Below are positions 566 through 43,631 of a DNA stretch of 64,000 nt, piece by piece. Under the pieces are notes generated by a model, which saw only the letters and a list, made by a program, of their open reading frames with translations, was not told the origin of the DNA and made no database searches. The stretch spans positions 2,840 through 66,839 of the forward strand of contig DASZPS010000071.1 of the NCBI GenBank assembly GCA_035549955.1, written 5' to 3'. A program made the position numbers and the translations under genes. Each line of letters begins with the position of its first letter. The first letter of the stretch is position 1. The DNA is from Lacunisphaera sp. (GTDB taxonomy: Bacteria; Verrucomicrobiota; Verrucomicrobiia; Opitutales; Opitutaceae).

Positions 566-2092
566 ATGAATATTCCACGCATTCTCACTGCTTTCGCGGT
601 GGCCGGACTCGCCTTGGCTGCCGCTTTGTTCACCGCCGTCGTCGCGAACGCTTCCGAGGGCCCGACCGATGCCAAGGGCCCGGTCATCCTCCCGGCCGAG
701 GTCCTGGCGCTGCCGGTTGAGCAGGCCATCCTCACCTCGCCGCCGAACGTTCCGCCGCCCATCGCCCGCAAGCACAGCGCGCGGGTCGTCGTGAACGTCG
801 AGGTGCGCGAGGTCGTCAAGAAGATCGCCGACGGCGCCGAGTACACCTTCTGGACGTACGGCGGCAGCGTCCCCGGCACGTTCATCCGCATCCGCGAGGG
901 CGACGTGGTGGAGTTCCACCTGAACAACCACCCCTCGTCCAAGCTTCCGCACAACATCGACCTGCACGCCGTCACCGGTCCCGGCGGTGGGGCGGCCAGC
1001 ACGTTCACCGCGCCCGGGCACAGCTCGCAGTTCACCTTCAAGGCGCTGAATCCCGGCCTGTTCGTCTATCACTGCGCCACCGCGCCCGTGCCCATGCACA
1101 TCGGCAACGGCATGTACGGCCTGATCCTGGTCGAGCCGAAGGACGGCCTGCCGCCGGTCGACAAGGAATTCTATGTCATGCAGGGCGAGTTCTACACGCA
1201 GGGCGGCTACGGGGCTCCCGGTTTGCAGTCCTTCGACATGGCGAAAAACATCGATGAGCGACCGACCTATGTGCTCTTCAACGGCGCGGTCGGGGCGCTG
1301 GTCGGCGATCGGGCGCTCCCCGTCAACGTGGGCGACCGCGTGCGCCTCTACTTCGGTGTCGGCGGGCCCAATCTCACGTCGTCCTTTCACGTCATCGGCG
1401 AGATCTTCGACAAGGTCTGGCCCGAGGGCGGCATGAAATTCGTGCAGGAAAACGTGCAGACCACCATGGTCCCGTCCGGGGGCTCGGCCATCGTCGAGTT
1501 CAAGATGGACGTGCCCGGCACCTACGTGCTGGTCGACCACTCGCTCAGCCGGGCGTTCAACAAGGGCGCGCTGGCCATGCTCAAGGCCACCGGTCCCGAG
1601 GACCGCGTGATCTATTCGGGCAAGGAAATCGACGCCGTGTATTTCGGCGCCGCGGCCGACGAGGGTTCCGCCTCGGCCAAGCGCGAGGCCGAGCTGAAGG
1701 CCAGGATCGAAGCCGAGATCAAGTCCAACCCCGCCATCGCCGGCCTCACCAAGGAGGTCCAGATGGAGCGCGGCAAGCAGGTCTTCATGGGCCTCTGCTT
1801 TGCCTGCCACCTGCCGGACGGCAAGGGCATGCCCAATGTTTTCCCGCCGCTCGCGGGTTCTGACTTCCTCATGGCCGACCGCGACCGCGCGATCCGCATC
1901 GTGCTCAAGGGTCTCATCGGGCCGGTCACCGTCAACGGCGCCACCTTCAACAGCGCCATGCCGCCGCAGGAGGCCGCCCTCTCCGAACAGCAGGTCGCCG
2001 ACGTGCTCACTTTCGTCACCAACAGCTGGGGCAACTCCGGCCCGGCCACCACGGTGGATGACGTCCGCCGCGTGAAGAACGAGACCCACTGA
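566..2092 (+). CDS. nirK: Copper-containing nitrite reductase NirK with fused C-terminal mono-haem cytochrome c domain
   Basis: 508 aa with an N-terminal signal peptide. Cupredoxin Cu-ligand regions are present ([14 protein letters not shown]; [20 protein letters not shown]). The C-terminal ~110 aa carry one CxxCH (CFACH) in a cytochrome c-like context (PPLAGSDFL...VTVNG). Confidence 0.93.
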
Positions 2093-3048: not shown

Positions 3049-3767
3049 AAACCACGCTTGTCCCCCCTCCGTCCTCCCAAATCGTCCCGCCCGCCCGATT
3101 CCTTTGTCATATATTATGTGACAAGAGTCGCGGCGGATTGCTGGCGCTGGCGCTGCTCGGGGCCGGCGCGGTGCGCGCCGGCGAGGCCCCCGCCTCCTGC
3201 TGCGCGTCCGAGCCCGTGAAAAAGGCCTCCTGCTGCGCGCCCGTCGAGGGCGAAAACCAAAAAACAGCAGCCGAAGCGTTCTCCAACCGCTCGCTCTACC
3301 AGGCTGACGCCGTGTTCACGACCGACGCCGGGGAGGAATTCCACCTGGGCCAGCTGCGCGGTCGGCCGGTCGTGCTGACAATGTTCTTCGCGTCCTGCGG
3401 CTATGCGTGCCCCTTGCTCGCGGCCGACATGGCCGCCATCCGCGCGCAGCTGCCGGCCGAGGTCCGCGCCCGCGCCGCGTTCGTCCTCGTGAGTTTCGAC
3501 TCGGTGCGCGACACGCCGGCCGCCCTGAAGAAGTACCGCGACGAGCGCGGCCTCGATGCCCAATGGACCCTGCTGCATGGTTCCGACGACGCGGTGCGCG
3601 AATTGGCGGCGTTGCTGGGGGTCAAGTTCCGGCGCGAGGCCGACGGCAATTTCGCCCATTCCAACCTCATCACGCTGCTTAACACCGAAGGTGAGATCAT
3701 CCACCAGCGCACCGGGCTCAAGGGCGGCCTCGCGGAGGCGGCGCAGGCGCTCGCGGCCCTGCCCTGA
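3045..3767 (+). CDS. SCO1/SenC family copper chaperone (thioredoxin fold)
   Basis: It has the CxxxC motif in a SCO context (VLTMFFASCGYACP), and a downstream His (NFAHSN) may correspond to the conserved SCO1 His. The ATG overlaps the nirV stop (ATGA at 3045-3048). The N-terminal region has two extra SCCA motifs (APASCCASEPVKKASCCAP). Confidence 0.85.
   Translation: MKTTLVPPPSSQIVPPARFLCHILCDKSRGGLLALALLGAGAVRAGEAPASCCASEPVKKASCCAPVEGENQKTAAEAFSNRSLYQADAVFTTDAGEEFHLGQLRGRPVVLTMFFASCGYACPLLAADMAAIRAQLPAEVRARAAFVLVSFDSVRDTPAALKKYRDERGLDAQWTLLHGSDDAVRELAALLGVKFRREADGNFAHSNLITLLNTEGEIIHQRTGLKGGLAEAAQALAALP
3104..3124. promoter_or_regulatory. AT-rich palindrome TTGTCAT-N7-GTGACAA (site 2 of 3)
   Basis: It lies inside the SCO1 N-terminal coding region (FLCHILCDKS) and uses the rare codons ATA and TTA. 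Its codon phase is the same as at sites 1 and 3. Confidence 0.45.
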
Positions 3768-19111: not shown

Positions 19112-21418
19112 ATGACGAACGGATCCAAGACCACCATCGAATTCAATGACGGCATCGTGCGGCAGTTCCTGCTCGCCGCCGTCCTCTGGGGCATCGTCGG
19201 CATGCTTGTCGGCGTGCTCATCGCCACCCAGCTCAACTTCTGGCAGGCCAACTTCGGCCAGTCCTGGCTGAGCTTCGGGCGCCTCCGTCCGCTCCACACC
19301 AACGCCGTCATCTTTGCCTTTGTCGGCAACATGATGTTCGCCGGCATCTATTACTCGACGCAGCGCCTGGTGAAAGCGCGTCTGGCGAGCGACTTTCTGT
19401 CGAACCTCCACTTCTGGGGCTGGCAGCTCATCATCGTGTCCGCGGCCATCACCCTCCCGCTGGGCCTCACCCGCGGCAAGGAATACGCGGAGCTCATCTG
19501 GCCCATCAACATCGCCGTCGCCTTCATCTGGGTGGTGTTCGCGGTGAACTTCTTCTGGACGCTCGCCCGCCGCAACGAGAAGTCCCTCTACGTCGCCGTC
19601 TGGTTCTACATCGCGACGATCATCACGGTCGCGATGCTCTACATCGTCAACCACCTGTCCATTCCGACTTCGCTGACGCACAGCTACCCGGTGTTCGGTG
19701 GCGTGCAGGATGGCCTGGTCCAGTGGTGGTACGGGCACAACGCCGTGGCGTTTTTCCTGACCACGCCGATTTTGGGCATCATGTACTACTTCCTGCCGAA
19801 GGCGGCGGAGCGGCCGGTCTACTCGTACCGGCTGTCGGTGGTCCACTTCTGGTCGCTGGTGTTCCTCTACATCTGGGCCGGCCCGCACCACCTGCTCAAC
19901 ACCGCGCTGCCCGCCTGGCTGCAACTCCTCGGCATGACCTTCTCGCTCATGCTGTGGGCACCGTCGTGGGGCGGCATGCTCAACGGCCTGCTCACGCTCC
20001 GCGGCGCCTGGGGCAAACTCCGGACCGACCCGGTCATCAAGTTCTTCGCCGCCGGCGTCACGTACTACGGCATGGCGACGTTTGAGGGCCCCCTGCTCTC
20101 GATCCGCTCCGTCAACGCGCTCGCGCACTACACCGACTGGATCATCGGGCACGTCCACGCCGGCGCGCTGGGGTGGAACGGCTTCATGGCGGCCGGCATG
20201 TTCTATTGGCTGGTCCCGCGCCTGTGGAACAAGCCCCTTTACTCCCAGTCGCTCGCCAACCTGCACTTCTGGATCGGGATGTTCGGCATCCTGCTTTACG
20301 TCGCGGCCATGTGGGCCTCGGGCATCGGCCAGGGCCTGATGCTCAACGCCACCGCCGAAAGCGGCACCATCCTGAAGTACCCGAACTTCCTGGAGACGGT
20401 GAATTCGATCCGGCCGCTCATGCTTCTCCGCGTGGTCGGGGGCGCGCTCTACCTGACCGGCTTCGTGCTCATGGCTTACAACATCCTCCGCAGCATCCGC
20501 GGCGCCAAGACCGTGAATGGCACGATCGAGGTCCATGTCGAGGCGCCCGCTGCGGACGAGCAGCTCGGGGCCGGGGCCACGATCTTCAACGCCCCGGTCG
20601 TGTTCTGCACGCTGGGCTTCATCGCCGCCTGCGTGTGGATGTTCGCGGATGGCTGGCTGAACCTATTCGGCCTGGTCGCGACGATCTTCTGCGTGCTGCT
20701 GGCCATCGGCCACTTCCAGTCGCGCGGCAAGGCCTGGGGCGACTGGTACGACAAGCTCCTCCTGAACGCCCTGCCGTTCACGGTCCTCACCTTCCTGTCC
20801 GTGGCCGTCGGCGGGCTCATCCAGATCATCCCGATGCTGACGATCGAGCGCCGGCTGCAGACCGAGGACCGCGTGGCGAAGGTCTACACGCCGCTCGAAC
20901 TGGCCGGCCGCGACCTCTATGTCCGCGAAGGTTGCTACACCTGCCACTCGCAGATGATCCGCACGCTGGTGCCGGACGTCATGCGCTACGGCGACTACTC
21001 GCGCCTCGGCGAATCCATCTGGGACCATCCCTACCAGTGGGGTTCGAAGCGCAACGGGCCCGACCTTGCCCGCGTCGGGGGCAAATATAACGACGCCTGG
21101 CATTTCGACCATATGCGCGACCCGCGGGCCATTTCGACGGGTTCCAACATGCCGGCCTACTACTGGCTGCACGAAAACAACACCGATTACGCGGCCCTCC
21201 CGGCGAAGATCCGCGTGCAGCGCACGCTCGGCGTCCCGTTTCCCAACTGGTCGCCGGCCGAAATCGATGCGCTCGCGAAAGTCCAGGCGAAACAAATCGC
21301 CCGGGACCTGCGCGACCAGGGCCGCTACACCGACGCCGACAAGGAGATCGTGGCCCTCACCGCTTACCTGCAGTCGCTGGGCAAGAAGTGGGAGGCGACG
21401 GGCACCGCTGCGCGGTGA
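19112..21418 (+). CDS. ccoNO: cbb3-type cytochrome c oxidase, fused subunits I and II (CcoN-CcoO)
   Basis: 768 aa. The N-terminal ~470 aa are haem-copper oxidase subunit I (HTNAVIFAFVGN, WYGHNAVAFFLT, HFWSLVFLYIWAGPHH, GHVHAGALGWNG). The C-terminal part is CcoO (CYTCHSQMIR, WGSKRNGPDLARVGGKY, HFDHMRDPR). Confidence 0.93.
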   Translation: MTNGSKTTIEFNDGIVRQFLLAAVLWGIVGMLVGVLIATQLNFWQANFGQSWLSFGRLRPLHTNAVIFAFVGNMMFAGIYYSTQRLVKARLASDFLSNLHFWGWQLIIVSAAITLPLGLTRGKEYAELIWPINIAVAFIWVVFAVNFFWTLARRNEKSLYVAVWFYIATIITVAMLYIVNHLSIPTSLTHSYPVFGGVQDGLVQWWYGHNAVAFFLTTPILGIMYYFLPKAAERPVYSYRLSVVHFWSLVFLYIWAGPHHLLNTALPAWLQLLGMTFSLMLWAPSWGGMLNGLLTLRGAWGKLRTDPVIKFFAAGVTYYGMATFEGPLLSIRSVNALAHYTDWIIGHVHAGALGWNGFMAAGMFYWLVPRLWNKPLYSQSLANLHFWIGMFGILLYVAAMWASGIGQGLMLNATAESGTILKYPNFLETVNSIRPLMLLRVVGGALYLTGFVLMAYNILRSIRGAKTVNGTIEVHVEAPAADEQLGAGATIFNAPVVFCTLGFIAACVWMFADGWLNLFGLVATIFCVLLAIGHFQSRGKAWGDWYDKLLLNALPFTVLTFLSVAVGGLIQIIPMLTIERRLQTEDRVAKVYTPLELAGRDLYVREGCYTCHSQMIRTLVPDVMRYGDYSRLGESIWDHPYQWGSKRNGPDLARVGGKYNDAWHFDHMRDPRAISTGSNMPAYYWLHENNTDYAALPAKIRVQRTLGVPFPNWSPAEIDALAKVQAKQIARDLRDQGRYTDADKEIVALTAYLQSLGKKWEATGTAAR

Positions 21419-21422
21419 AATC

Positions 21423-21452
21423 CCAAACGCCAAACGTCCAAACGCCAAACAA
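21423..21452. repeat. Short tandem CCAAACG-type heptamer repeats (about 4 units) in the ccoNO/ccoQ-like spacer
   Basis: The sequence is CCAAACG CCAAACGT CCAAACG CCAAACA. It is followed by AACCCAGAACCCAGACCC. Confidence 0.7.
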
Positions 21453-21496
21453 TCCCCTACCCGGATCCTAAAACCCAGAACCCAGACCCTAATCCC

Positions 21497-21655
21497 ATGT
21501 TTCGCCGCATCATCTACGAAGACTGGCAGTTGATTTTTCCCGTCGTGGCGCTGGCCGTGGCGTCGCTCGTTTACCTCGCCGCCGCGTGGCGCGCGGCGCG
21601 CATGAAACCCGCCCAGGCCGATCGGCTCTCCCGCCTGCCCTTGGAACACGACTGA
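21497..21655 (+). CDS. Small single-TM protein in the CcoQ position (CcoQ/FixQ-like)
   Basis: 52 codons (MFRRIIYEDWQLIFPVVALAVASLVYLAAAWRAARMKPAQADRLSRLPLEHD). It is absent from the ORF track because of its size. It has one hydrophobic helix and lies between ccoNO and ccoP. Confidence 0.5.
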   Translation: MFRRIIYEDWQLIFPVVALAVASLVYLAAAWRAARMKPAQADRLSRLPLEHD

Positions 21656-21731
21656 ACCGGGTGGGCGTCGGTTTCCACCGCGACGCCTGTCGCCGCCGTG
21701 GCAAGCGGCGCCCCCATTTACCTTCCGCCGC

Positions 21732-22322
21732 ATGAATTCCACTCCCACCCAACCGCCGACCAGCGATCCAGATATTCCGGTCCGTCCGCACACTTACGAC
21801 GGCATCCAGGAATACGACCAGCGCCTGCCGAACTGGTGGCTCTACACGCTCTACGGGACCATCGCCTTCTGGGCCGTATTCTGGTTCGCCTACATGATCG
21901 CCCGGGTGCCGGCCACCAACGAGGCGCTCGTGGAGTCCCGCATGGCCGAGATCGCCGCCGTCAAGCTCGCGACCTCGCTCGACGTGACCAACGACGCGCT
22001 CTTCTGGGAAATGAGCCGCAACCCGGTGTTCGTCGACGCAGGCAAGCAGACTTTCAACTCCCTTTGCGTCGCCTGTCACCTGCCGACGCTTCGGGGCAAG
22101 AGCGAGAATCCCGCGGCCGTCGGGCCGGACCTGACGGACCAGTCCTGGATTCACGGGGGCACCCCGAAGGAGGTTTACGCCACGGTTTCAAAGGGCGTGC
22201 TCGCCAAGGGCATGCCGACCTGGGAACCGGTGCTTGGCCAGAAGAAGACCGCCGAGGTCGTCGCCTACGTCCTGTCCCATCACCAAAAGGGTGAGCCGGT
22301 GACGGTGGAGGTCCCCAAGTGA
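21732..22322 (+). CDS. ccoP: cbb3 oxidase subunit III (CcoP/FixP), apparently mono-haem
   Basis: It has the FixP N-terminal motif (HTYDGIQEYDQRLPNWW) plus a TM helix. Only one CxxCH is visible (CVACH). Confidence 0.85.
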   Translation: MNSTPTQPPTSDPDIPVRPHTYDGIQEYDQRLPNWWLYTLYGTIAFWAVFWFAYMIARVPATNEALVESRMAEIAAVKLATSLDVTNDALFWEMSRNPVFVDAGKQTFNSLCVACHLPTLRGKSENPAAVGPDLTDQSWIHGGTPKEVYATVSKGVLAKGMPTWEPVLGQKKTAEVVAYVLSHHQKGEPVTVEVPK

Positions 22323-23947
22323 AATCAACCGGGGTCCTTGACCCCGGGCCGGACCCAGCGACGCCGGCTGCCACCCGCCCGCTCGAACCACGCATGGGCA
22401 ACGAACTGACAGTCCCACCCAAGGCCGAAAATCCCAAGGCGAAAGCGGCGAAGGCCCGGCGGCCCTCGCTTGAGTCCGTCACGACCATCGCGGCCGACGG
22501 ATCGCGGCGCGATTTGCATCCTTCGGACGTGCGCGGGCCGTTCATGTCGGCCCGGCGCTGGAGCGGGTGGGGCCTCATTGCCTTCTACCTGGTGCTCCCG
22601 TGGATCCCCGTGAACGGCTATCCCGCGGTGTTTCTGGACATCGCCGAGGGACGGTTCCACTTCTTCGGCTACACGCTGGCGCCCCAGGACACCTGGCTGC
22701 TGTTCTTCGCGGTCTCCGGGCTCGGCTTCACGCTGTTCTTTGTCACGGCGCTCATTGGCCGCGTGTGGTGCGGCTGGGCCTGCCCCCAGACCGTGTACCT
22801 CGAGCACGTTTACCGCGTGATCGAGCGCTGGGTCGACGGCGACGGGCCGGCGCGGCGGGCGCTGGCGGCCGCACCCCTCACGGCCGCCAAGGCGGCCCGG
22901 CGCGTGGCCAAGCACAGCCTCTACGTCGTGGCCTCGTTGCTGATAACGCACCTTTTCCTGAGCTATTTCGTGAGCCTGCCGGAGGTTTGGCACATGATGC
23001 GCTCGGCGCCGCGGGAACATTGGGCGCCCTTTGTCTTCGTCTTCGCCAGTGCCGGTCTGCTCTACTTCAACTTCGCCTGGTTCCGCGAGCAGCTGTGCAT
23101 CATGATTTGTCCCTACGGCCGGCTGCAGTCGGCGCTGACGGACGATCATTCCGTGGTGATCGGCTACGACGCGAAGCGGGGCGAGCCGCGGGGCAGGATT
23201 CATCGCGAGGTAGGGGCGCAGTTTCGCTGCGCCCAAGGAGCAACGAAGTCCGAAAGGGCGCAGCAAGACTGCGCCCCTACCACCGAGGCGCTTGGCGCTT
23301 GCATCGATTGCAGCCGTTGCGTGCAAGTCTGCCCCACGGGCATCGACATCCGCCAGGGCCTGCAACTCGAATGCATCGGTTGCGCCGCCTGCATCGATGC
23401 GTGCGACGAGGTCATGACGCGCGTCGGGCGGCCGAAGGGTCTGATCCGCTACGATTCGCTGGCGCGTTTCGCCGGCGGGCGCACGCGGTGGATCCGGCCG
23501 CGCACGATCGTCTATTTTGTCCTGCTGCTGGTGGGCGTGGCGGTCGCAACCTTCGCCTTTTCGCGGGTCAAGCCGGCCAGCTTCCTCGTCTACCGCATGA
23601 CCGGCGCCGCCTATTTCGTGGACCGGAACGACGTGCGCAACCAGTTCATGGTTCGCCTCGTGAACAAGCTTTCCCGTCCGGCCGAGCTCGCGGTCGCTAC
23701 CACCGGCGTGCCGGCGGGCGTGAAGCTGACGGGATTCGACGCGCCGGTGATCATCCCGGCGCTGGGCGAGCAGGTCAGCCCGCTGGTGCTGACCGTCGAC
23801 CGCAAGACTTACGCCGGGCCGTTCCACTTCACCGTCGTGGTGCGGGATACCGCCGGCACGTACCAACTGTCCCGGGCCGTCGAGTTCATGGGCCCGGAAC
23901 CGAAGCTGCTCGAGGAGGAGGATCGTGAAAACGGCATCAAGCGTTGA
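22319..23947 (+). CDS. ccoG: cbb3 oxidase accessory protein CcoG (membrane 4Fe-4S ferredoxin)
   Basis: It carries WCGWACPQT and two ferredoxin Cys motifs (CIDCSRCVQVCPTGIDIRQG, CIGCAACIDACDEVM), followed by a C-terminal beta domain. GTG at 22319 overlaps the ccoP stop; ATG at 22394 is an alternative start. A REP-like insert lies at 23210-23280. Confidence 0.9.
   Translation: MKSTGVLDPGPDPATPAATRPLEPRMGNELTVPPKAENPKAKAAKARRPSLESVTTIAADGSRRDLHPSDVRGPFMSARRWSGWGLIAFYLVLPWIPVNGYPAVFLDIAEGRFHFFGYTLAPQDTWLLFFAVSGLGFTLFFVTALIGRVWCGWACPQTVYLEHVYRVIERWVDGDGPARRALAAAPLTAAKAARRVAKHSLYVVASLLITHLFLSYFVSLPEVWHMMRSAPREHWAPFVFVFASAGLLYFNFAWFREQLCIMICPYGRLQSALTDDHSVVIGYDAKRGEPRGRIHREVGAQFRCAQGATKSERAQQDCAPTTEALGACIDCSRCVQVCPTGIDIRQGLQLECIGCAACIDACDEVMTRVGRPKGLIRYDSLARFAGGRTRWIRPRTIVYFVLLLVGVAVATFAFSRVKPASFLVYRMTGAAYFVDRNDVRNQFMVRLVNKLSRPAELAVATTGVPAGVKLTGFDAPVIIPALGEQVSPLVLTVDRKTYAGPFHFTVVVRDTAGTYQLSRAVEFMGPEPKLLEEEDRENGIKR
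23210..23280. repeat. REP-like hairpin-pair element (family R) inside the ccoG reading frame
   Basis: The element reads GTAGGGGCGCAG-tttcg-CTGCGCCC ... GGGCGCAG-caaga-CTGCGCCCCTAC. It is translated in frame as ~EVGAQFRCAQGATKSERAQQDCAPTT, in the linker between the RGEPRG and CIDC motifs. Confidence 0.8.
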
Positions 23948-24182
23948 GGGGATGCCCGCCGATCCATGTAGGGTTGCCGCTTGCGGCGACCTGGGGGAAT
24001 CGCATGCGAGGTCGGCGCAAGCGCCGACCCTACAAAAGGCGACTGGCGCGACGTGGTCCCTCTGGGTTTGGGTCCTCGCCGGCTTCCTGTTGTTGGTCGC
24101 GGCTTGGGGCGCGATGTTCACCGCGGCCCATGCCGCGAAAGTCGAATCGGTGCCGCTGGCAACCAAGGGGGCCCAGCCATGA
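23925..24182 (+). CDS. Small single-TM protein downstream of ccoG (FixH-position; start uncertain)
   Basis: It has a TM helix (WSLWVWVLAGFLLLVAAWGAMF). Its stop overlaps the next ATG (ATGA at 24179-24182). The only in-frame ATG (23925) places a REP element (23967-24034) inside the N-terminus. Confidence 0.4.
   Translation: MKTASSVEGMPADPCRVAACGDLGESHARSAQAPTLQKATGATWSLWVWVLAGFLLLVAAWGAMFTAAHAAKVESVPLATKGAQP
23967..24034. repeat. REP-like hairpin-pair element (family R)
   Basis: TGTAGGGTTGCCGC-ttgc-GGCGACC ... GGTCGGCGC-aa-GCGCCGACCCTACA. The terminal arms TGTAGGGT/ACCCTACA are inverted. Confidence 0.8.
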
Positions 24183-24880
24183 CGGCCGAACTTTCCGCCA
24201 TCACCGGGCCCGGCACGGCCCTCCTTGCGGGGCTCGTGACCAGCCTGCATTGCGTCGGCATGTGCGGCCCGCTGGCCTGTGCACTGATGCCGGCGCGGGC
24301 GGGTGATGCCGATTCCCACACGGTGAGCACGGTCTATCACCTGTGCCGGCTCGGCGGCTACAGCCTGCTCGGGGCGCTGGCGGGCGGGATTGGCCGCCTG
24401 CCGCTCACGCTGCTCGGCTCGGATGCGCTGCGCTACCTGCCCTGGTTGCTCGTGCTGTTTTTCGTGGCGGTCGCGGTGCGTTTCGACCAGCGCCTGCCCC
24501 GCCTCCCGCTGCTCGGGCGCGCCTATGGTGCGGTGGCGGCGCGGCTCCGCGGCGGTTCTAGGGTGCGGGCGGCCGCGCTGCTCGGCGTGGCCACGCCGCT
24601 GCTGCCCTGCGGCCCACTCTATTTTCTCGTGTCGCTGGCGATGCTATCCGGCTCGGCCCAACGTGGGGCGGAGACCTTGTTCGCGTTCGGCCTCGGGACG
24701 GTGCCGCTGCTCTGGCTCGCCCAGGTGAATTTCCATTTCATCCGCGTACGGCTCGGCCCGGTCTGGCTGGCGCGCACGCAGACCATCCTGGCGCTGGTCG
24801 TGGCGGCGGTCCTCGTGTGGCGGCTGCGCGGGACGCTCGGCTGGGGCGGGCCGGGGGCGGGGGACTTTGTGTGCTTCTGA
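24179..24880 (+). CDS. TauE/SafE-like (COG2836-type) membrane protein with HCxxMCGP motif
   Basis: 233 aa and polytopic. The SLHCVGMCGPLA motif and a second PLLPCGPLY motif are typical of the family found in cbb3/Cu-ATPase clusters. Confidence 0.6.
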   Translation: MTAELSAITGPGTALLAGLVTSLHCVGMCGPLACALMPARAGDADSHTVSTVYHLCRLGGYSLLGALAGGIGRLPLTLLGSDALRYLPWLLVLFFVAVAVRFDQRLPRLPLLGRAYGAVAARLRGGSRVRAAALLGVATPLLPCGPLYFLVSLAMLSGSAQRGAETLFAFGLGTVPLLWLAQVNFHFIRVRLGPVWLARTQTILALVVAAVLVWRLRGTLGWGGPGAGDFVCF

Positions 24881-24881
24881 C

Positions 24882-25245
24882 ATGAATACCGATTTCCAGG
24901 CGAATTGGGTGGACAGGATGTGTGAGCCCGATGGTGCGAGTGCGTGGACTGCGCACCCCGCAAGCCGCTCCTGTCCACCTTTGCCTGCACGCCACGGCGT
25001 GCTTCCCGGATGAAAACCGACCTTCAGGCCAATTGGGTGGACGTGGGGCGTGAGCCCGATGGTGCGAGTGCGTGGACTGCGCACCCCGCAAGCCGCTCCC
25101 GTCCACCTTTGCCTGCACGCCCTGGCGCGGCGCCGGGATGAAAACCGACTTTCAGGCCAATTGGGTGGACGGGGGCGCGAGCCCGATGGTGCGAGTGCGT
25201 GGACTGCGCACCCCGCAAGCCGCTCCCGTCCACCTTTGCCTGCAC
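24882..25245 (+). repeat. Tandem triplication (period 128 bp) of the 5' end of the Cu-ATPase gene
   Basis: ATG-initiated units begin at 24882, 25010 and 25138. A 67-nt core (GAGCCCGATGGTGCGAGTGCGTGGACTGCGCACCCCGCAAGCCGCTCCyGTCCACCTTTGCCTGCAC) is identical apart from one substitution. Units 1 and 2 each encode a 43-codon ORF ending in an ATGA overlap with the next unit. Confidence 0.9.
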
Positions 25246-27612
25246 TGCGGCACGCCGCTGGCGACGGAGGCCGCGCGGGCGGAAGGATTTTGCTGCGCGG
25301 GCTGCAGCTACGTGCACCGGCTGGTCCACGAGCACGGGCTGGAGGGCTACTACAGGATTCGCGATGCCGTCGTCGCGCCGGTGGACCCGGCGGTGCTCCA
25401 GCCGCGAGACTATGCGTGGCTGGCGGAACTCCAGGCGGAGGCCGAGCGCCTGGCGACCGGCACGCCGGAGATGGTGCTGGAGGTGCAGGGCATTTCCTGC
25501 GCCGGTTGCGTCTGGCTGATCGAGAAGGTGTTTCACCAGCAGCCGGGAGCCCTGGTGATTGAAACCGATGCCCCGTTGGGCCGCATGCGCCTGCGCTGGC
25601 AGCGCGGGCGGTTCGACGCGCCGGCCTTCGCCCGCACGCTGCAATCCTTCAACTACCTTGCCGGGCCCCCGGGCGCGGAGCCGCCGGTGCCGGAGAGCCG
25701 GGCGCTGGTGCGGCGCATCGGGCTGTGCGCCGCGTTCGCCATGAACATCATGCTGTTCGCGTTGCCGCACTATTTCGGGATGGAGGCTACATTCTCGTAT
25801 GCATCGTTGTTCGGCACGTTGGCCATGGGGTTCGCGACCCTGAGCCTGCTGACGGGCGGCAGCTACTTCTTCGGGCGGGCGATCGCCGCGTTGCGCAGCG
25901 GGGTGTTGCATATCGACCTGCCGATCGCACTCGGCATTGCCGGCGCTTATGCGGGTTCATTCTACGGCTGGGCCACCGGGCGGGAGTTGTTTGTCTATTT
26001 CGATTTTGTCGGGGCCTTCATCCTCCTGATGCTGGTGGGCCGCTGGGCGCAGGTCGCGGCGGTGGAACGCAACCAGCGGCGCCTGCTGCGCGCACAGGCC
26101 CGGCCGCAGCGGGTCGCCGTGGCGGGGCCGGCCGGCGAATGGCGCGATGTGCCGGTCGAGAACCTGCAGCCGGGGGACGTTTTCCGGGTGAAGCCGGGCG
26201 AAGCGGTGCCCGTCGAGGCCCGGTTGGAGTCGGCGGCGGCGACCTTTGGCACGGCTTGGATCACCGGCGAGGCGGACCCGCGGGACCAGCGCGCGGGCGC
26301 GCGGGTGCCGGCCGGTTCGGTGGTGTTGTCGCGGGGCGCGGTGCAATTGCGCGCCGCGCAGGCGTGGGGGGAATCGCTCCTGGCCCGGTTGCTGCGGCCG
26401 GTGACGCGGGACGCCTACCGCCACCGGACATTGGAAAGAATCGTGGCCGGATATCTCATCGCCATCCTTGGCGTGGCGGTCGCCGCGGGCGTAGGCTGGT
26501 GGCTGCTTTCCCACGACGCGGAACGCACCTGGGCGGTGGTGACCGCGGTGCTCGTGGTTTCGTGCCCCTGCGCCGTGGGGCTCGCCTTTCCCCTGGCGGA
26601 AGAGATGGCGACCGTCGCGCTGCGCCGGCACGGCGTGTTCGTGCGCGAAGCCGACCTCTGGCCGCGCTTGGGACGAATCCGGAAACTGATCTTCGACAAG
26701 ACGGGAACGCTGACCCTCGAGACCCCCGCGCTGGCCAACCCCGGGGTGCTGGACCAACTCACCCCCCCGGCCCGCGCCGCGTTGCTGGCGTTGGTGCGGG
26801 AAAGCCCGCATCCGGTGAGCCAGAGCCTGCTGGAAAACCTGCTGACGCGGGCTGATTTCGTGAAGGAAACGGCGCCGGCAGGCCGCATCACCGAGGAGGC
26901 GGGCGGCGGCGTGCGGCTGGAGTCGGCGTCCGGTACCTGGACCCTCGGGCGGCCGGGGTGGGCCGGCGCCTCCGCGGAAACTTGTCATACATTAGGTGAC
27001 AAGTTTCCAGAGGCCGCCCACGACACCGAGTTCGCCTGCGATGGCGTGTTGCTGACGCGATTCCGCTTTGTCGATGCCGTCCGCACCGGCGCGGCGGCCG
27101 AAATTGCGCACCTGCGGGCCCGCGGTCTCGAAGTCTTTATTTTGAGCGGCGATCGTCGGGAAAAAGTGGCCGCGATGGCCCAGGCCCTGGGCCTGGCCCC
27201 CGGGCAGGCCGTGGCGGAGGCCACGCCCGCCGGGAAGGCGGCGTGGGTGCGGCGAATTGACCGGGGCGACACGTTGATGCTGGGCGACGGTGCCAATGAC
27301 AGCCTGGCGTTCGACGCCGCGCTGGCGCGAGGCACGCCCGTCATCCACCGCGGCGTGCTGGCGGGCAAGGCGGACTTCTACTATCTCGGTCGCGGCCTCG
27401 ATGGCTTGCGCCGCTTGTTTGAGGTCAACCACGCGCGCCGCCGGACCCAGCAGGCTTTGCTGGCGTTTTCGGTCGCCTACAACGCGCTGGCCGTGGGGCT
27501 GGCCGTGACCGGGCAGATGAATCCGCTGGTGGCGGCGATCCTGATGCCCGTCAGCTCCTTGTTGTCGCTGGCCATCGTGGGCGCCGGCATGCGCCGCTGG
27601 CTCGGCCGCTGA
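25138..27612 (+). CDS. ccoI: Heavy-metal (copper) translocating P1B-type ATPase, CcoI/FixI-like
   Basis: It has an N-terminal Cys-rich metal-binding domain (CLHCGTPL...FCCAGCSYVH), a CPC motif (VVSCPCAVG), the phosphorylation site DKTGTLT, and the hinge GDGANDS. The start is set at the third repeat unit (25138). Confidence 0.9.
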   Translation: MKTDFQANWVDGGASPMVRVRGLRTPQAAPVHLCLHCGTPLATEAARAEGFCCAGCSYVHRLVHEHGLEGYYRIRDAVVAPVDPAVLQPRDYAWLAELQAEAERLATGTPEMVLEVQGISCAGCVWLIEKVFHQQPGALVIETDAPLGRMRLRWQRGRFDAPAFARTLQSFNYLAGPPGAEPPVPESRALVRRIGLCAAFAMNIMLFALPHYFGMEATFSYASLFGTLAMGFATLSLLTGGSYFFGRAIAALRSGVLHIDLPIALGIAGAYAGSFYGWATGRELFVYFDFVGAFILLMLVGRWAQVAAVERNQRRLLRAQARPQRVAVAGPAGEWRDVPVENLQPGDVFRVKPGEAVPVEARLESAAATFGTAWITGEADPRDQRAGARVPAGSVVLSRGAVQLRAAQAWGESLLARLLRPVTRDAYRHRTLERIVAGYLIAILGVAVAAGVGWWLLSHDAERTWAVVTAVLVVSCPCAVGLAFPLAEEMATVALRRHGVFVREADLWPRLGRIRKLIFDKTGTLTLETPALANPGVLDQLTPPARAALLALVRESPHPVSQSLLENLLTRADFVKETAPAGRITEEAGGGVRLESASGTWTLGRPGWAGASAETCHTLGDKFPEAAHDTEFACDGVLLTRFRFVDAVRTGAAAEIAHLRARGLEVFILSGDRREKVAAMAQALGLAPGQAVAEATPAGKAAWVRRIDRGDTLMLGDGANDSLAFDAALARGTPVIHRGVLAGKADFYYLGRGLDGLRRLFEVNHARRRTQQALLAFSVAYNALAVGLAVTGQMNPLVAAILMPVSSLLSLAIVGAGMRRWLGR
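26976..27008. promoter_or_regulatory. AT-rich palindrome GGAAACTTGTCA-N9-TGACAAGTTTCC (site 3 of 3; core TTGTCAT-N7-GTGACAA)
   Basis: It has perfect 12-bp arms and lies inside the Cu-ATPase ORF (ETCHTLGDKF). It shares the core and codon phase of the nirV and SCO1 sites. Confidence 0.45.
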
Positions 27613-43187: not shown

Positions 43188-43631
43188 TTATTTGTCGGCC
43201 GGCGGGACGATCAGCACGGCGCACTTGGTGTGCTTGATGACGCCGCTGGCCGTGCTGCCGACGAGGAAGTCGTAGAGCTTGCCGTGGCCGTGCGAGCCCA
43301 TGATGACGCAATCGGCGTCGGTCTTGGCGATGTGCTCGAGGATCGCGCGCTCGGGCGAACCGATGGCGTCAGCGACCGCGAATTCGATCCCGGCCTGCTG
43401 GAAGACGTCGCCCAGGGCATTCAGCTTTCGCTGGGTGTCCAGCCGGGTGGTTTTCATGGCCTGTTCCACGACGTCGGAGGGCAGGGCATAGTCGCCGGTG
43501 CCGACGACGGGAGGTTGGATGACGTGCAGCAGAGTCACGCGACTCTGGAAAGCCCGGGCGAGGGCGAGCGCGGTTTCGATCACCTTGCCGGAGACCGCGG
43601 AGAAGTCGACGGGGACAAGGAGGGTTTTCAT
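43188..43631 (-). CDS. Universal stress protein (UspA family)
   Basis: It has MKTLLVPVDFS at the N-terminus and GSHGHGKLYDFLVGSTASGVIKHTKCAVLIV at the C-terminus. Confidence 0.9.
   Translation of the reverse strand: MKTLLVPVDFSAVSGKVIETALALARAFQSRVTLLHVIQPPVVGTGDYALPSDVVEQAMKTTRLDTQRKLNALGDVFQQAGIEFAVADAIGSPERAILEHIAKTDADCVIMGSHGHGKLYDFLVGSTASGVIKHTKCAVLIVPPADK

Follow-up and report, generated by a model that had tools for sequence, protein, structure and literature searches.

A triplicated unit lies at the junction between DsbD_2 and ccoI

The stretch of DNA analyzed here (the window; 64,000 nucleotides of contig DASZPS010000071.1 from Lacunisphaera sp., assembly GCA_035549955.1, positions 2,840 to 66,839) contains a cbb3 oxidase gene cluster in which ccoI, encoding a P1B-type ATPase, directly follows the gene for a DsbD_2-family membrane protein (Table 1). 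The junction of these two genes is occupied by a tandemly repeated element, which an earlier note, made from the DNA letters, had described as a 128-bp triplication of the 5′ end of the ATPase gene. Using Tandem Repeats Finder (TRF), we found a repeat with a period of 128 nt, 2.9 copies and 91% matches (score 591) at positions 24882-25245, with an ATG opening each of the three units, at 24882, 25010, and 25138. What the note had missed is the central feature of the locus: the unit is a start codon followed by a conserved structured RNA, and one or more copies of it are found at this junction throughout a clade.

The three units have a 67-nt core in common (from 24924, 25052, and 25179), whose sole substitution is at offset 48 (T in unit 1, position 24972), and a 48-mer of the core gave three exact matches within the window against none expected. 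Units 1 and 2 differ by 18 mismatches. The alignment showed that unit 3 has 1 nt fewer between the 5′ arm of the hairpin described below and the core, so that the core is read there as ...VRVRGLRTPQAAPVHLCLHCGTPL; the repeat similarity stops past the His codon of the metal-binding motif C-L-H-C (25237-25248). The extra base in units 1 and 2 gives the period of 128 (≡ 2 mod 3) and hence the ATGA end of each of the two upstream open reading frames (uORFs), which are 43 codons long. Every sequence detail of the earlier note was confirmed: it had given the start codons, the core with its one substitution, the two uORFs with their overlaps at 25010 and 25138, the frame switch in the shorter unit 3, and the end of the repeat within C-L-H-C. 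The note had also rightly set aside a CRISPR (clustered regularly interspaced short palindromic repeats) array, as the units are contiguous stretches of 122-128 nt without unique spacers, and its pointer to GGTGCG...CGCACC was a good lead.

The copy number (three or more) is that of the window assembly alone. An independent short-read assembly (Logan SRR12170509, here L125) was 100% identical to window positions 20938-24951 and reproduced the unit-1 variant linked to the upstream gene, before ending 28 nt inside the repeated core, which is the expected break point of a k-mer assembler at a real repeat. Given this assembly and the differences between the units, collapse or duplication by the assembler is very unlikely. 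Exact-protein look-ups of the ATPase with three alternative starts found no other assembly on record, and the look-up with ccoP succeeded, in L125.

Table 1. Features of the cbb3 oxidase cluster and of the repeated element (positions in the window)
Feature	Position	Strand	Evidence
Fused ccoNO, single 768-aa open reading frame (COX1 residues 15-445, FixO 552-759)	19112-21418		
ccoP (FixP_N)	21732-22322		
ccoG (FixG_C)	about 22394-23947		
85-aa open reading frame between ccoG and DsbD_2	23925-24182		no Pfam/NCBIfam match
DsbD_2-family membrane protein gene; TGA stop at 24878-24880, 1 nt before the unit 1 ATG	24179..24880	+	Pfam PF13386, E 3.8e-36; gene call in L125
Unit 1, 128 nt: ATG + hairpin + linker	24882..25009	+	TRF, alignment, covariance-model match 85.6 bits
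uORF1, 43 codons, encodes MNTDFQANWVDRMCEPDGASAWTAHPASRSCPPLPARHGVLPG*; TGA overlaps the unit 2 ATG (ATGA)	24882..25013	+	open reading frame chain analysis
Hairpin 1; outer arms GGTGGACAGGA / TCCTGTCCACC; apical AGTGCGTGGACT at 24939-24950	24908..24979	+	11-bp perfect inverted repeat; fold -60.5 kcal/mol, z = -4.1
Unit 2, 128 nt	25010..25137	+	TRF, covariance-model match 86.8 bits
uORF2, 43 codons, encodes MKTDLQANWVDVGREPDGASAWTAHPASRSRPPLPARPGAAPG*; TGA overlaps the ccoI ATG (ATGA)	25010..25141	+	open reading frame chain analysis
Hairpin 2; apical AGTGCGTGGACT at 25067-25078	25036..25107	+	fold, inverted repeat
Unit 3, terminal; = ccoI codons 1-36	25138..25245	+	TRF, alignment, covariance-model match 97.7 bits
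Hairpin 3 within ccoI codons 9-33; apical AGTGCGTGGACT at 25194-25205, part of VRVRGL	25164..25234	+	14-nt arms 93% complementary; fold -64.1 kcal/mol
ccoI/fixI-type P1B (CopA2-type) ATPase; N-terminal metal-binding CxHC at 25237-25248	25138..27612	+	Pfam PF00122, PF00702, PF12156; NCBIfam heavy-metal P-type ATPase subfamilies

The ATPase was identified as CcoI/FixI (CopA2-type) from its P-type core, its Cys-rich N-terminal domain (PF12156), and its ccoNO, ccoP, and ccoG neighbors; its metal specificity is taken from this context, since the NCBIfam Cu-ATPase subfamilies scored below cut-off. CcoI-type ATPases supply Cu(I) for the assembly of cbb3 oxidase, and CcoI is strictly required for metallation of this oxidase, while the control of the CcoI level and the role of its N-terminal region are still open (PMC7558416). 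Upstream, the end of ccoG is overlapped by the 85-aa open reading frame (ORF), whose TGA shares an ATGA with the DsbD_2 start codon (24179-24182). With such tight junctions, ccoG, the 85-aa ORF, DsbD_2, and ccoI make up a chain of abutting or overlapping ORFs. We detected homologues of the 85-aa ORF solely in loci that carry the element, although for so short an ORF this may be an effect of search sensitivity. A weaker tandem repeat (period 33, 2.4 copies, 72% matches) was also seen within the DsbD_2 coding sequence, at 24507-24587.

Each unit encodes a sense-strand RNA hairpin with an invariant apical loop

Folding of the window units predicted an imperfect hairpin of ~72 nt on the sense strand of every unit, with energies of -60 to -64 kcal/mol and z-scores of -1.8 to -4.1. 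The hairpin begins 27 nt past the ATG with a basal helix (UUGGYGRAC...GUYCRCC) and is closed by a nearly invariant apical part, AGU-GCGUGG-ACU, with a bulged G 3′ of it, while an alignment of the units showed the mid-hairpin internal loop to be the most variable part. The single-stranded flanks are conserved and AU-rich (CAAUUU / AUUAUCUU) in a genome of 65-70% GC.

To examine whether the pairing is maintained, we used 80 genome units, collected from the loci described in the next section, in an alignment built without structural guidance. RNAalifold returned 20 consensus pairs in two helices, 14 of which showed compensatory double changes, and 96.5% of all cells were standard-paired. There were 149 double-change cells, compared to 38 ± 7.6 in column shuffles (none of 500 reached the observed number) and 7-32 when the 3′ partners were slid by 1-3 columns. 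The result was reproduced with 69 distinct metagenome units that had played no part in deriving the structure: 97.8% of the cells were paired, and 57 cells carried double changes, compared to 16 in shuffles (maximum 32) and 3-14 after sliding. Compensated versions of the basal helix include GGUGAAC/GUUCACC, GGCGAAC/GUUCGCC, and GGUGGAC/GUCCACC; the upper stems are fully rewritten in the seven-unit arrays; and in a distant subclade AGGU...ACCU replaces AGU...ACU, a compensatory insertion. The window itself holds one such case, as the C>T change at 24972 in the core of unit 1 is matched, relative to units 2 and 3, by a G>A change at its partner 24915 in the variable part (pair A24915-T24972).

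G-U pairs are frequent when the plus strand is folded, whereas the mirror-image A-C equivalents are rare, and covariance-model scores were 65-100 bits on the plus strand compared to 15-30 bits on the minus strand. The structure therefore belongs to the sense transcript. Scanned against Rfam, the whole window gave no matches at gathering thresholds, and the best match between 24000 and 26000 in a permissive scan had E = 0.34, well under the gathering score; nor did we find a description of such an element in the literature. We conclude that the element is an RNA motif not previously described, with an unusual modular architecture, that its hairpin is under purifying selection in every copy, and that the apical loop is under sequence-specific constraint.

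The terminal unit has to satisfy the protein code as well. In most loci, an in-frame ATG lies 32-34 codons ahead of the first Cys codon, which places the hairpin in ccoI codons ~9-33. Among 58 distinct terminal units, the loop codons GTG CGT GGA were 100% invariant at all three positions, and mean third-position conservation was 0.80 in the hairpin part compared to 0.67 in the downstream metal-binding domain, where the third base varies even at invariant Cys, His, and Gly codons. The loop is invariant in the other units too, whichever frame reads through it.

The arms can also pair between units. The 3′ arm at 25094-25107 is complementary to the next 5′ arm at 25164-25177, and likewise 24973-24979 to 25036-25042; with such inter-unit pairing, the ATGA restart site would come to lie in a loop of 56 nt. 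When the whole array is folded, the minimum-energy structure mixes both registers and uses the inter-unit one for units 2 and 3. A search for complements of the loop within ±10 kb yielded scattered chance 8-mers and one subclade-specific cluster downstream of ccoI. The loop-complementary 8-mer GTCCACGC recurs ~2560-2770 nt downstream of the last unit in L006, L010, L083, L084, L104, and L123 only, a recurrence that is probably due to common descent rather than to a target site.

In loci of related Opitutaceae, the element occurs at a single gene junction

A search with the ATPase, using one genome per species, gave 73 loci, which with one exception come from Opitutaceae and related Verrucomicrobiota (Oleiharenicola, Lacunisphaera, 'Opitutus', Didemnitutus). 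Most of the organisms are represented by metagenome-assembled genomes. TRF found arrays with periods of 122 to 126 nt at the same position in several of these species. With an iterated nucleotide profile and a covariance model, we detected the unit in 37 of these loci, in each case at the 5′ end of ccoI and on its strand. Single copies were most common (23 loci; the cultured Oleiharenicola sp. Vm1, L013, also has a single unit) and six loci had two; four copies were found in L012, where a contig edge cuts the array, and in L049, five in L003 and L018, six in L015, and seven in L016, L022, and L026. A metagenome scan with a pattern made of hairpin bases only added 51 further loci holding 105-109 units, depending on the method, again in 1-7 copies. 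In total, 88 related Opitutaceae loci carry the element in one to seven tandem copies.

Wherever a contig reached far enough, the element lay between the DsbD_2 gene and the ATPase gene, in the same orientation, and every related locus with enough flank had the DsbD_2 gene upstream of it. All 83 genome and 109 metagenome matches were on the ccoI strand at the DsbD_2/ccoI junction, and no copy away from this junction was found in 724 kb + 332 kb (~1 Mb: the 64-kb window, the 73 genome loci, and the 51 metagenome loci). Within these sequences, the position of the module is exclusive to the DsbD_2/ccoI junction. In domain scans of the neighboring genes, no recombinase or transposase gene was associated with the element. 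A weak plus-strand covariance-model match elsewhere in the window (43188-43266; 18.3 bits, E = 0.07) was taken to be noise.

The hairpin is absent from more distant Opitutaceae, which have a non-conserved linker of ~17-33 residues in its place and keep the tight DsbD_2 stop/start junction. The hairpin is therefore an innovation of one clade, made inside a tolerant N-terminal linker. In the ATPase tree, one large clade has arrays (2-7 units) in all members, and as the units are orthologous across species, this array must be old. Other multi-unit lineages, namely that of the window (three units), L002/L101/L052/L088, L074, L080, and L049, stand beside single-unit sisters, which points to repeated amplification of the module. 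The window is a young, lineage-specific case, its units being nearest to one another (0.91-0.97 identity, compared to at most 0.92 to units elsewhere). In L101 (787-1004), the internal units of the four-unit array were only ~64% identical to any unit elsewhere but still scored 47-52 bits with the covariance model; this array may be old or fast-evolving.

A chain of reading frames leads from DsbD_2 into ccoI

The window shows an unbroken chain from DsbD_2 through uORF1 and uORF2 to ccoI, joined by TGAcATG at 24878-24884 and by ATGA at 25010 and 25138, and no Shine-Dalgarno sequence was found at any of these junctions. In single-unit loci with complete flanks, ccoI starts 1-2 nt past the DsbD_2 stop in 28 of 29 cases, and none of 25 distinct single-unit sequences had a Shine-Dalgarno core at the ccoI start. 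Judging from this short gap and the missing Shine-Dalgarno core, the ancestral state looks like one of obligatory translational coupling.

Multi-unit arrays keep the same arrangement. Among 29 complete arrays, 27 had an unbroken chain, and in the other two the last uORF overlaps the ccoI start by ~20 nt. In the 27, the first ORF begins 1-2 nt past the DsbD_2 stop (in L002, 11 nt past it). The array is tiled by one to five ORFs, the last of which stops at the ccoI start as NTGA (-4) or TGATG (-1) or, in L018 and L075, 16-17 nt short of it. Overlaps of the NTGA and TGATG types are the canonical spacings in coupling (PMC12548453). In the long arrays, one frame is open across 190-280 codons, which is improbable in composition-preserving shuffles (P between <0.0005 and 0.008); the three frames of L015, for instance, contain 1, 18, and 7 stops. 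Between the orthologous seven-unit arrays of L016, L022, and L026, the indels are of 3 nt and 99 nt (91 + 8), both multiples of 3.

The peptides encoded by these frames are a different matter. Substitutions among L016, L022, and L026 were spread evenly over the codon positions in the arrays (34/32/27), compared to 36/24/162 in the adjacent ATPase, and different arrays or units cross the loop in all three frames, reading it as VRVRGL, SAWT, or CECVDC. The frames of the arrays are thus kept open whereas the peptides are not conserved, and the chain of coupled frames is maintained.

The window has one uORF per unit, and L086 is similar, with five uORFs over its seven units. These L086 uORFs (1220-2062, minus strand of the locus) are ~42 codons long, have their own ATGs and TGATG or ATGA junctions, and use another frame through the loop, giving Cys-rich peptides (MNALPSLNLANGGVIPxWCECVDCxLPHPLPF...). 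Non-repeat insertions were seen in or before the arrays of L015 (3508-3623; ~78 nt, shared by L015 and L120) and L022 (about 3141-3260; 99 nt); they are multiples of three, and the threading ORF stays open. Finally, 17 of 27 multi-unit arrays have a Shine-Dalgarno-like core (GGAG or GAGG, with GGAGG in eight) in the 22 nt upstream of the ccoI start (e.g., L004 3979-4000 and L052 3961-3982). Multi-unit arrays seem to gain a ribosome-binding site of their own, for which the ACG GAG G codons past CxHC are a possible source.

A possible gate on the relay of ribosomes into ccoI

We propose that the repeated unit acts as a module made of a start codon and a structured mRNA element of the sense transcript. 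In the ancestral state, a single copy in ccoI codons ~9-33 would be crossed by ribosomes handed over from DsbD_2 to translate ccoI. Several lineages, including that of the window, have amplified the module to 2-7 copies, with selection presumably keeping a continuous chain of frames through the arrays by means of NTGA and TGATG overlaps. The hairpins would modulate the relay of ribosomes into ccoI, most likely as a throttle or gate and probably through a trans-acting factor bound at the loop, and the number of copies would set the strength of the effect on CcoI synthesis. It is the invariant sequence of the loop that suggests such a binding partner rather than mere stability of the hairpin. 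In Escherichia coli, a hairpin placed beyond +13 has by itself a <2-fold effect on initiation (PMC5435973), which is consistent with an action on elongation or the relay, or with one exerted via a bound factor. On balance we favor, as a probable reading of these comparative data, a throttle or gate that acts in cis on coupled translation and would grow stronger with the number of modules.

A more specific version can be formulated, in which the hairpin is the operator of a post-transcriptional control of copper supply to cbb3 oxidase: a putative protein or RNA that responds to copper, redox state, or oxygen would bind the GCGUGG loop and block or release the relayed ribosomes, and each module would be one gate, the gain being tuned by 1-7 copies in the manner of single and tandem iron-responsive elements (IREs). 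We regard this version as possible but doubtful.

Several observations weigh against the favored reading. The many loci are phylogenetically related, and their counts therefore exaggerate how many observations are independent. The ORF chain by itself is weak evidence in short arrays, since -4 overlaps evolve easily (PMC12548453) and two or even all three frames of GC-rich units are often open, and the arrays with a Shine-Dalgarno-like core may initiate ccoI independently of the relay. A passive hairpin at +27 is expected to affect initiation little, and a purely thermodynamic throttle would not explain the invariant loop. As to a bound factor, the surroundings of the locus yielded neither a candidate binding protein nor a complementary RNA, and the order of neighboring genes is identical in loci with and without the element, so that no candidate gene for such a factor co-occurs with it.

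Among the alternatives, we considered that the hairpins might be elements of mRNA processing or stability (RNase III or RNase E sites, or barriers to 3′ exonucleases), so that the upstream cco/DsbD_2 message could decay or accumulate independently of the ccoI message, with the ORF chain just keeping the region translated and free of Rho-dependent polarity. Long, imperfect hairpins (~30 bp, with internal loops) between AU-rich flanks, in a genome of this GC content, would suit such a role, and so would their site at a cistron junction in a polycistronic cluster, where several copies would add up as barriers. However, general barriers or RNase III substrates need no invariant apical loop, no terminator-like signal was found in the array, and the ancestral copy sits within the ccoI reading frame, 27 nt past its start, where cleavage would destroy and not release the ccoI message, which makes this alternative unlikely. 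The arrays might instead be by-products, with functionless internal units, of a stable hairpin that turns the ccoI 5′ end into a hotspot of slippage or unequal recombination; they would be tolerated as long as they are translatable, and only the terminal copy, or none, would matter. This would account for copy numbers of 1-7 among relatives, for expansions that recur beside single-unit sisters, and for young arrays with near-identical units (the window, L018, L086), and the -4 overlaps come easily (PMC12548453). Yet it is quite improbable, because the old arrays L016, L022, and L026 have kept seven units that are just 65-92% alike and orthologous across species, with compensated pairing and an unchanged loop, while mid-hairpin and linkers diverge freely; this conservation is selective, and recent copying alone does not explain it. 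The comparison with relatives that the earlier note had called for placed arrays at the same junction in related Opitutaceae, and of its suggestions, a recent tandem duplication held for the fairly young window array, whereas a merely neutral variable-number tandem repeat did not, given older arrays of up to seven diverged units with compensatory changes and an invariant loop. Its termination-reinitiation cascade gained strong comparative support, the predicted frames spanning from the DsbD_2 stop to the ccoI start in the 29 complete arrays, with NTGA or TGATG at most junctions; multiple copies of a promoter or operator were not supported, as no promoter-like sites were found in the array and the many G-U pairs indicate a sense-strand RNA and not DNA half-sites. 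An assembly artefact, finally, has a practically negligible chance of explaining the triplication: repeats are a classic source of misassembly and the window copy number comes from one assembly, but units 1 and 2 differ at 18 positions, there is a 1-nt indel, L125 joins the unit-1 variant to the upstream gene, and arrays occur at the same place in dozens of unrelated assemblies.

Three further explanations place the function elsewhere than in the relay. The units or the array could yield small RNAs (sRNAs), independent or processed, that act in trans, the loop serving as a seed or as a sponge for a protein. Examples of tandem sRNA paralogues and of multi-hairpin protein sponges are known, and the tandem hairpin units have an invariant exposed loop that contains GGA and, in the internal units, U-rich 3′ flanks. 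We nevertheless consider this very improbable: the U-rich flank derives from ancestral ccoI codons (CAT TGT CTT) and not from a new terminator, the array showed no promoter-like sites, no conserved complementary target was found within ±10 kb, the ancestral single copy lies inside a coding sequence, and open frames joined to ccoI, unnecessary for sRNA genes, have been kept. Functional peptides or a repeat protein, for instance one with the Cys-rich CECVDC, would turn the nucleotide conservation into protein constraint. Open frames of up to 280 codons through the arrays, periods of 123 and 126 nt that equal 41 and 42 codons, one frame that reads C-E-C-V-D-C, and the L086 units, each with its own ATG and encoding MNALPSLNLANGGVIPxWCECVDC..., all fit this idea, but three frames are used through the same loop, the codon-position profile is flat (34/32/27 vs 36/24/162 in the ATPase), the uORF peptides of the window have no Pfam or NCBIfam match, and coding cannot explain the covariation of the stems, so that it is highly improbable. 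An element that works as DNA (a cruciform or single-stranded DNA hairpin, or half-sites bound by a protein, as in an operator or recombination site) is scarcely plausible; its basal arms do form an inverted repeat (TGGTGAAC ... GTTCACCA) and GTGGAC occurs three times per unit, but units of one genome carry different compensated bases, which leaves no single DNA-binding specificity, G-U pairs are frequent on the plus strand and their A-C equivalents rare, and in the ~1 Mb searched the element is confined to one locus, with no recombinase or transposase gene associated.

Whichever way the hairpins act, the locus provides a new RNA motif that covaries strongly and is strictly associated with one gene, from the little-studied phylum Verrucomicrobiota. 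Its natural series of 1-7 copies makes a dose-response test of coupling through structured RNA directly feasible, and frames that are kept open without being conserved, presumably held only for ribosomes to cross an RNA array, bear on how uORFs are annotated and coupling is modeled. A loop-binding factor, should there be one, would connect copper or oxygen status with the assembly of the respiratory chain in a new, post-transcriptional way, and if the operator version were true, the array would be a bacterial, in-frame, modular 'ribosome relay' regulator.

Comparison with known systems

Repetitive extragenic palindromes and bacterial interspersed mosaic elements (REP/BIME) are GC-rich imperfect palindromes, sometimes in tandem, that lie between operon cistrons and are dispersed over many intergenic sites per genome. 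The element described here is likewise a GC-rich imperfect palindrome between cistrons, but it is restricted to one junction in the ~1 Mb searched, is predicted to be translated, and has an invariant loop. A REP/BIME or a dispersed repeat resembling miniature inverted-repeat transposable elements was rejected, as there were no copies outside the junction in the window, the 73 genome loci, and the 51 metagenome loci.

Tandem cis-regulatory RNAs are known from tandem glycine and triple c-di-GMP riboswitches. As in these, a structured RNA is repeated upstream of one gene, and the repetition could sharpen or scale a response; unlike them, the element has no multi-helix junction or conserved pocket, its internal loop being the least conserved part, and there is no expression platform or terminator, the copies lying within ORFs, each with a start codon. 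The poorly conserved internal loop and the position inside ORFs rule out a riboswitch. Leader-peptide attenuation was rejected on the use of three frames, the flat codon-position profile, and the absence of a terminator-like site in the array, and a resemblance to selenocysteine insertion sequences (SECIS) or CsrA sites was dropped, as there is no in-frame UGA upstream and the loop is longer and different.

For copA of E. coli, programmed -1 frameshifting that yields the chaperone CopA(Z) is described by Meydan et al. (2017), as cited in PMC7558416. In both cases, the mRNA of a Cu(I) P1B-ATPase is structured in its 5′ part, close to where the N-terminal metal-binding domain is encoded. The hairpin at ccoI, however, lies upstream of the first CxxC, whereas the copA structure follows the first metal-binding domain; the frames at ccoI are linked by stop/start overlap and not by slippage; and the ATPase is of the CopA2/CcoI type, not CopA1. 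A frameshift site was rejected for the element, since there is no slippery heptamer 5-9 nt upstream, and CAAUUUG abuts the stem with a spacing of 0 nt.

In the system of IREs and iron regulatory proteins, hairpins with a conserved hexaloop and a bulge occur in mRNAs of metal homeostasis, one in the 5′ untranslated region (UTR) of ferritin and five in tandem in the 3′ UTR of TfR1. The present element resembles IREs in having an invariant apical hexaloop and a bulged nucleotide, in occurring in one or tandem copies in the mRNA of a metal-handling gene, and in the plausible read-out of the loop by a binding protein. It differs in its loop sequence (GCGUGG instead of CAGUGN), in a bulge placed on the 3′ side, in its bacterial host, and in lying inside frames predicted to be translated; the analogy is one of logic only.

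The closest parallel is translational coupling (reviewed in PMC12548453), with which the locus shares co-oriented ORFs with -4 or -1 overlaps or 1-2-nt gaps at each junction, from the 85-aa ORF through ccoI. Single-unit loci and the window also have a downstream start that lacks a Shine-Dalgarno sequence, while 17 of 27 multi-unit arrays do have such a core ahead of the ccoI ATG. Coupling tends to be poorer when structure follows closely after the upstream stop (PMC12548453). The coupled ORFs differ here in being non-conserved bridge frames that span an array of RNA modules, and not protein genes, and we found no description in the literature of a multi-step relay through repeated hairpins. 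In the layout of its junctions, the locus matches, at the level of sequence, termination-reinitiation coupling.

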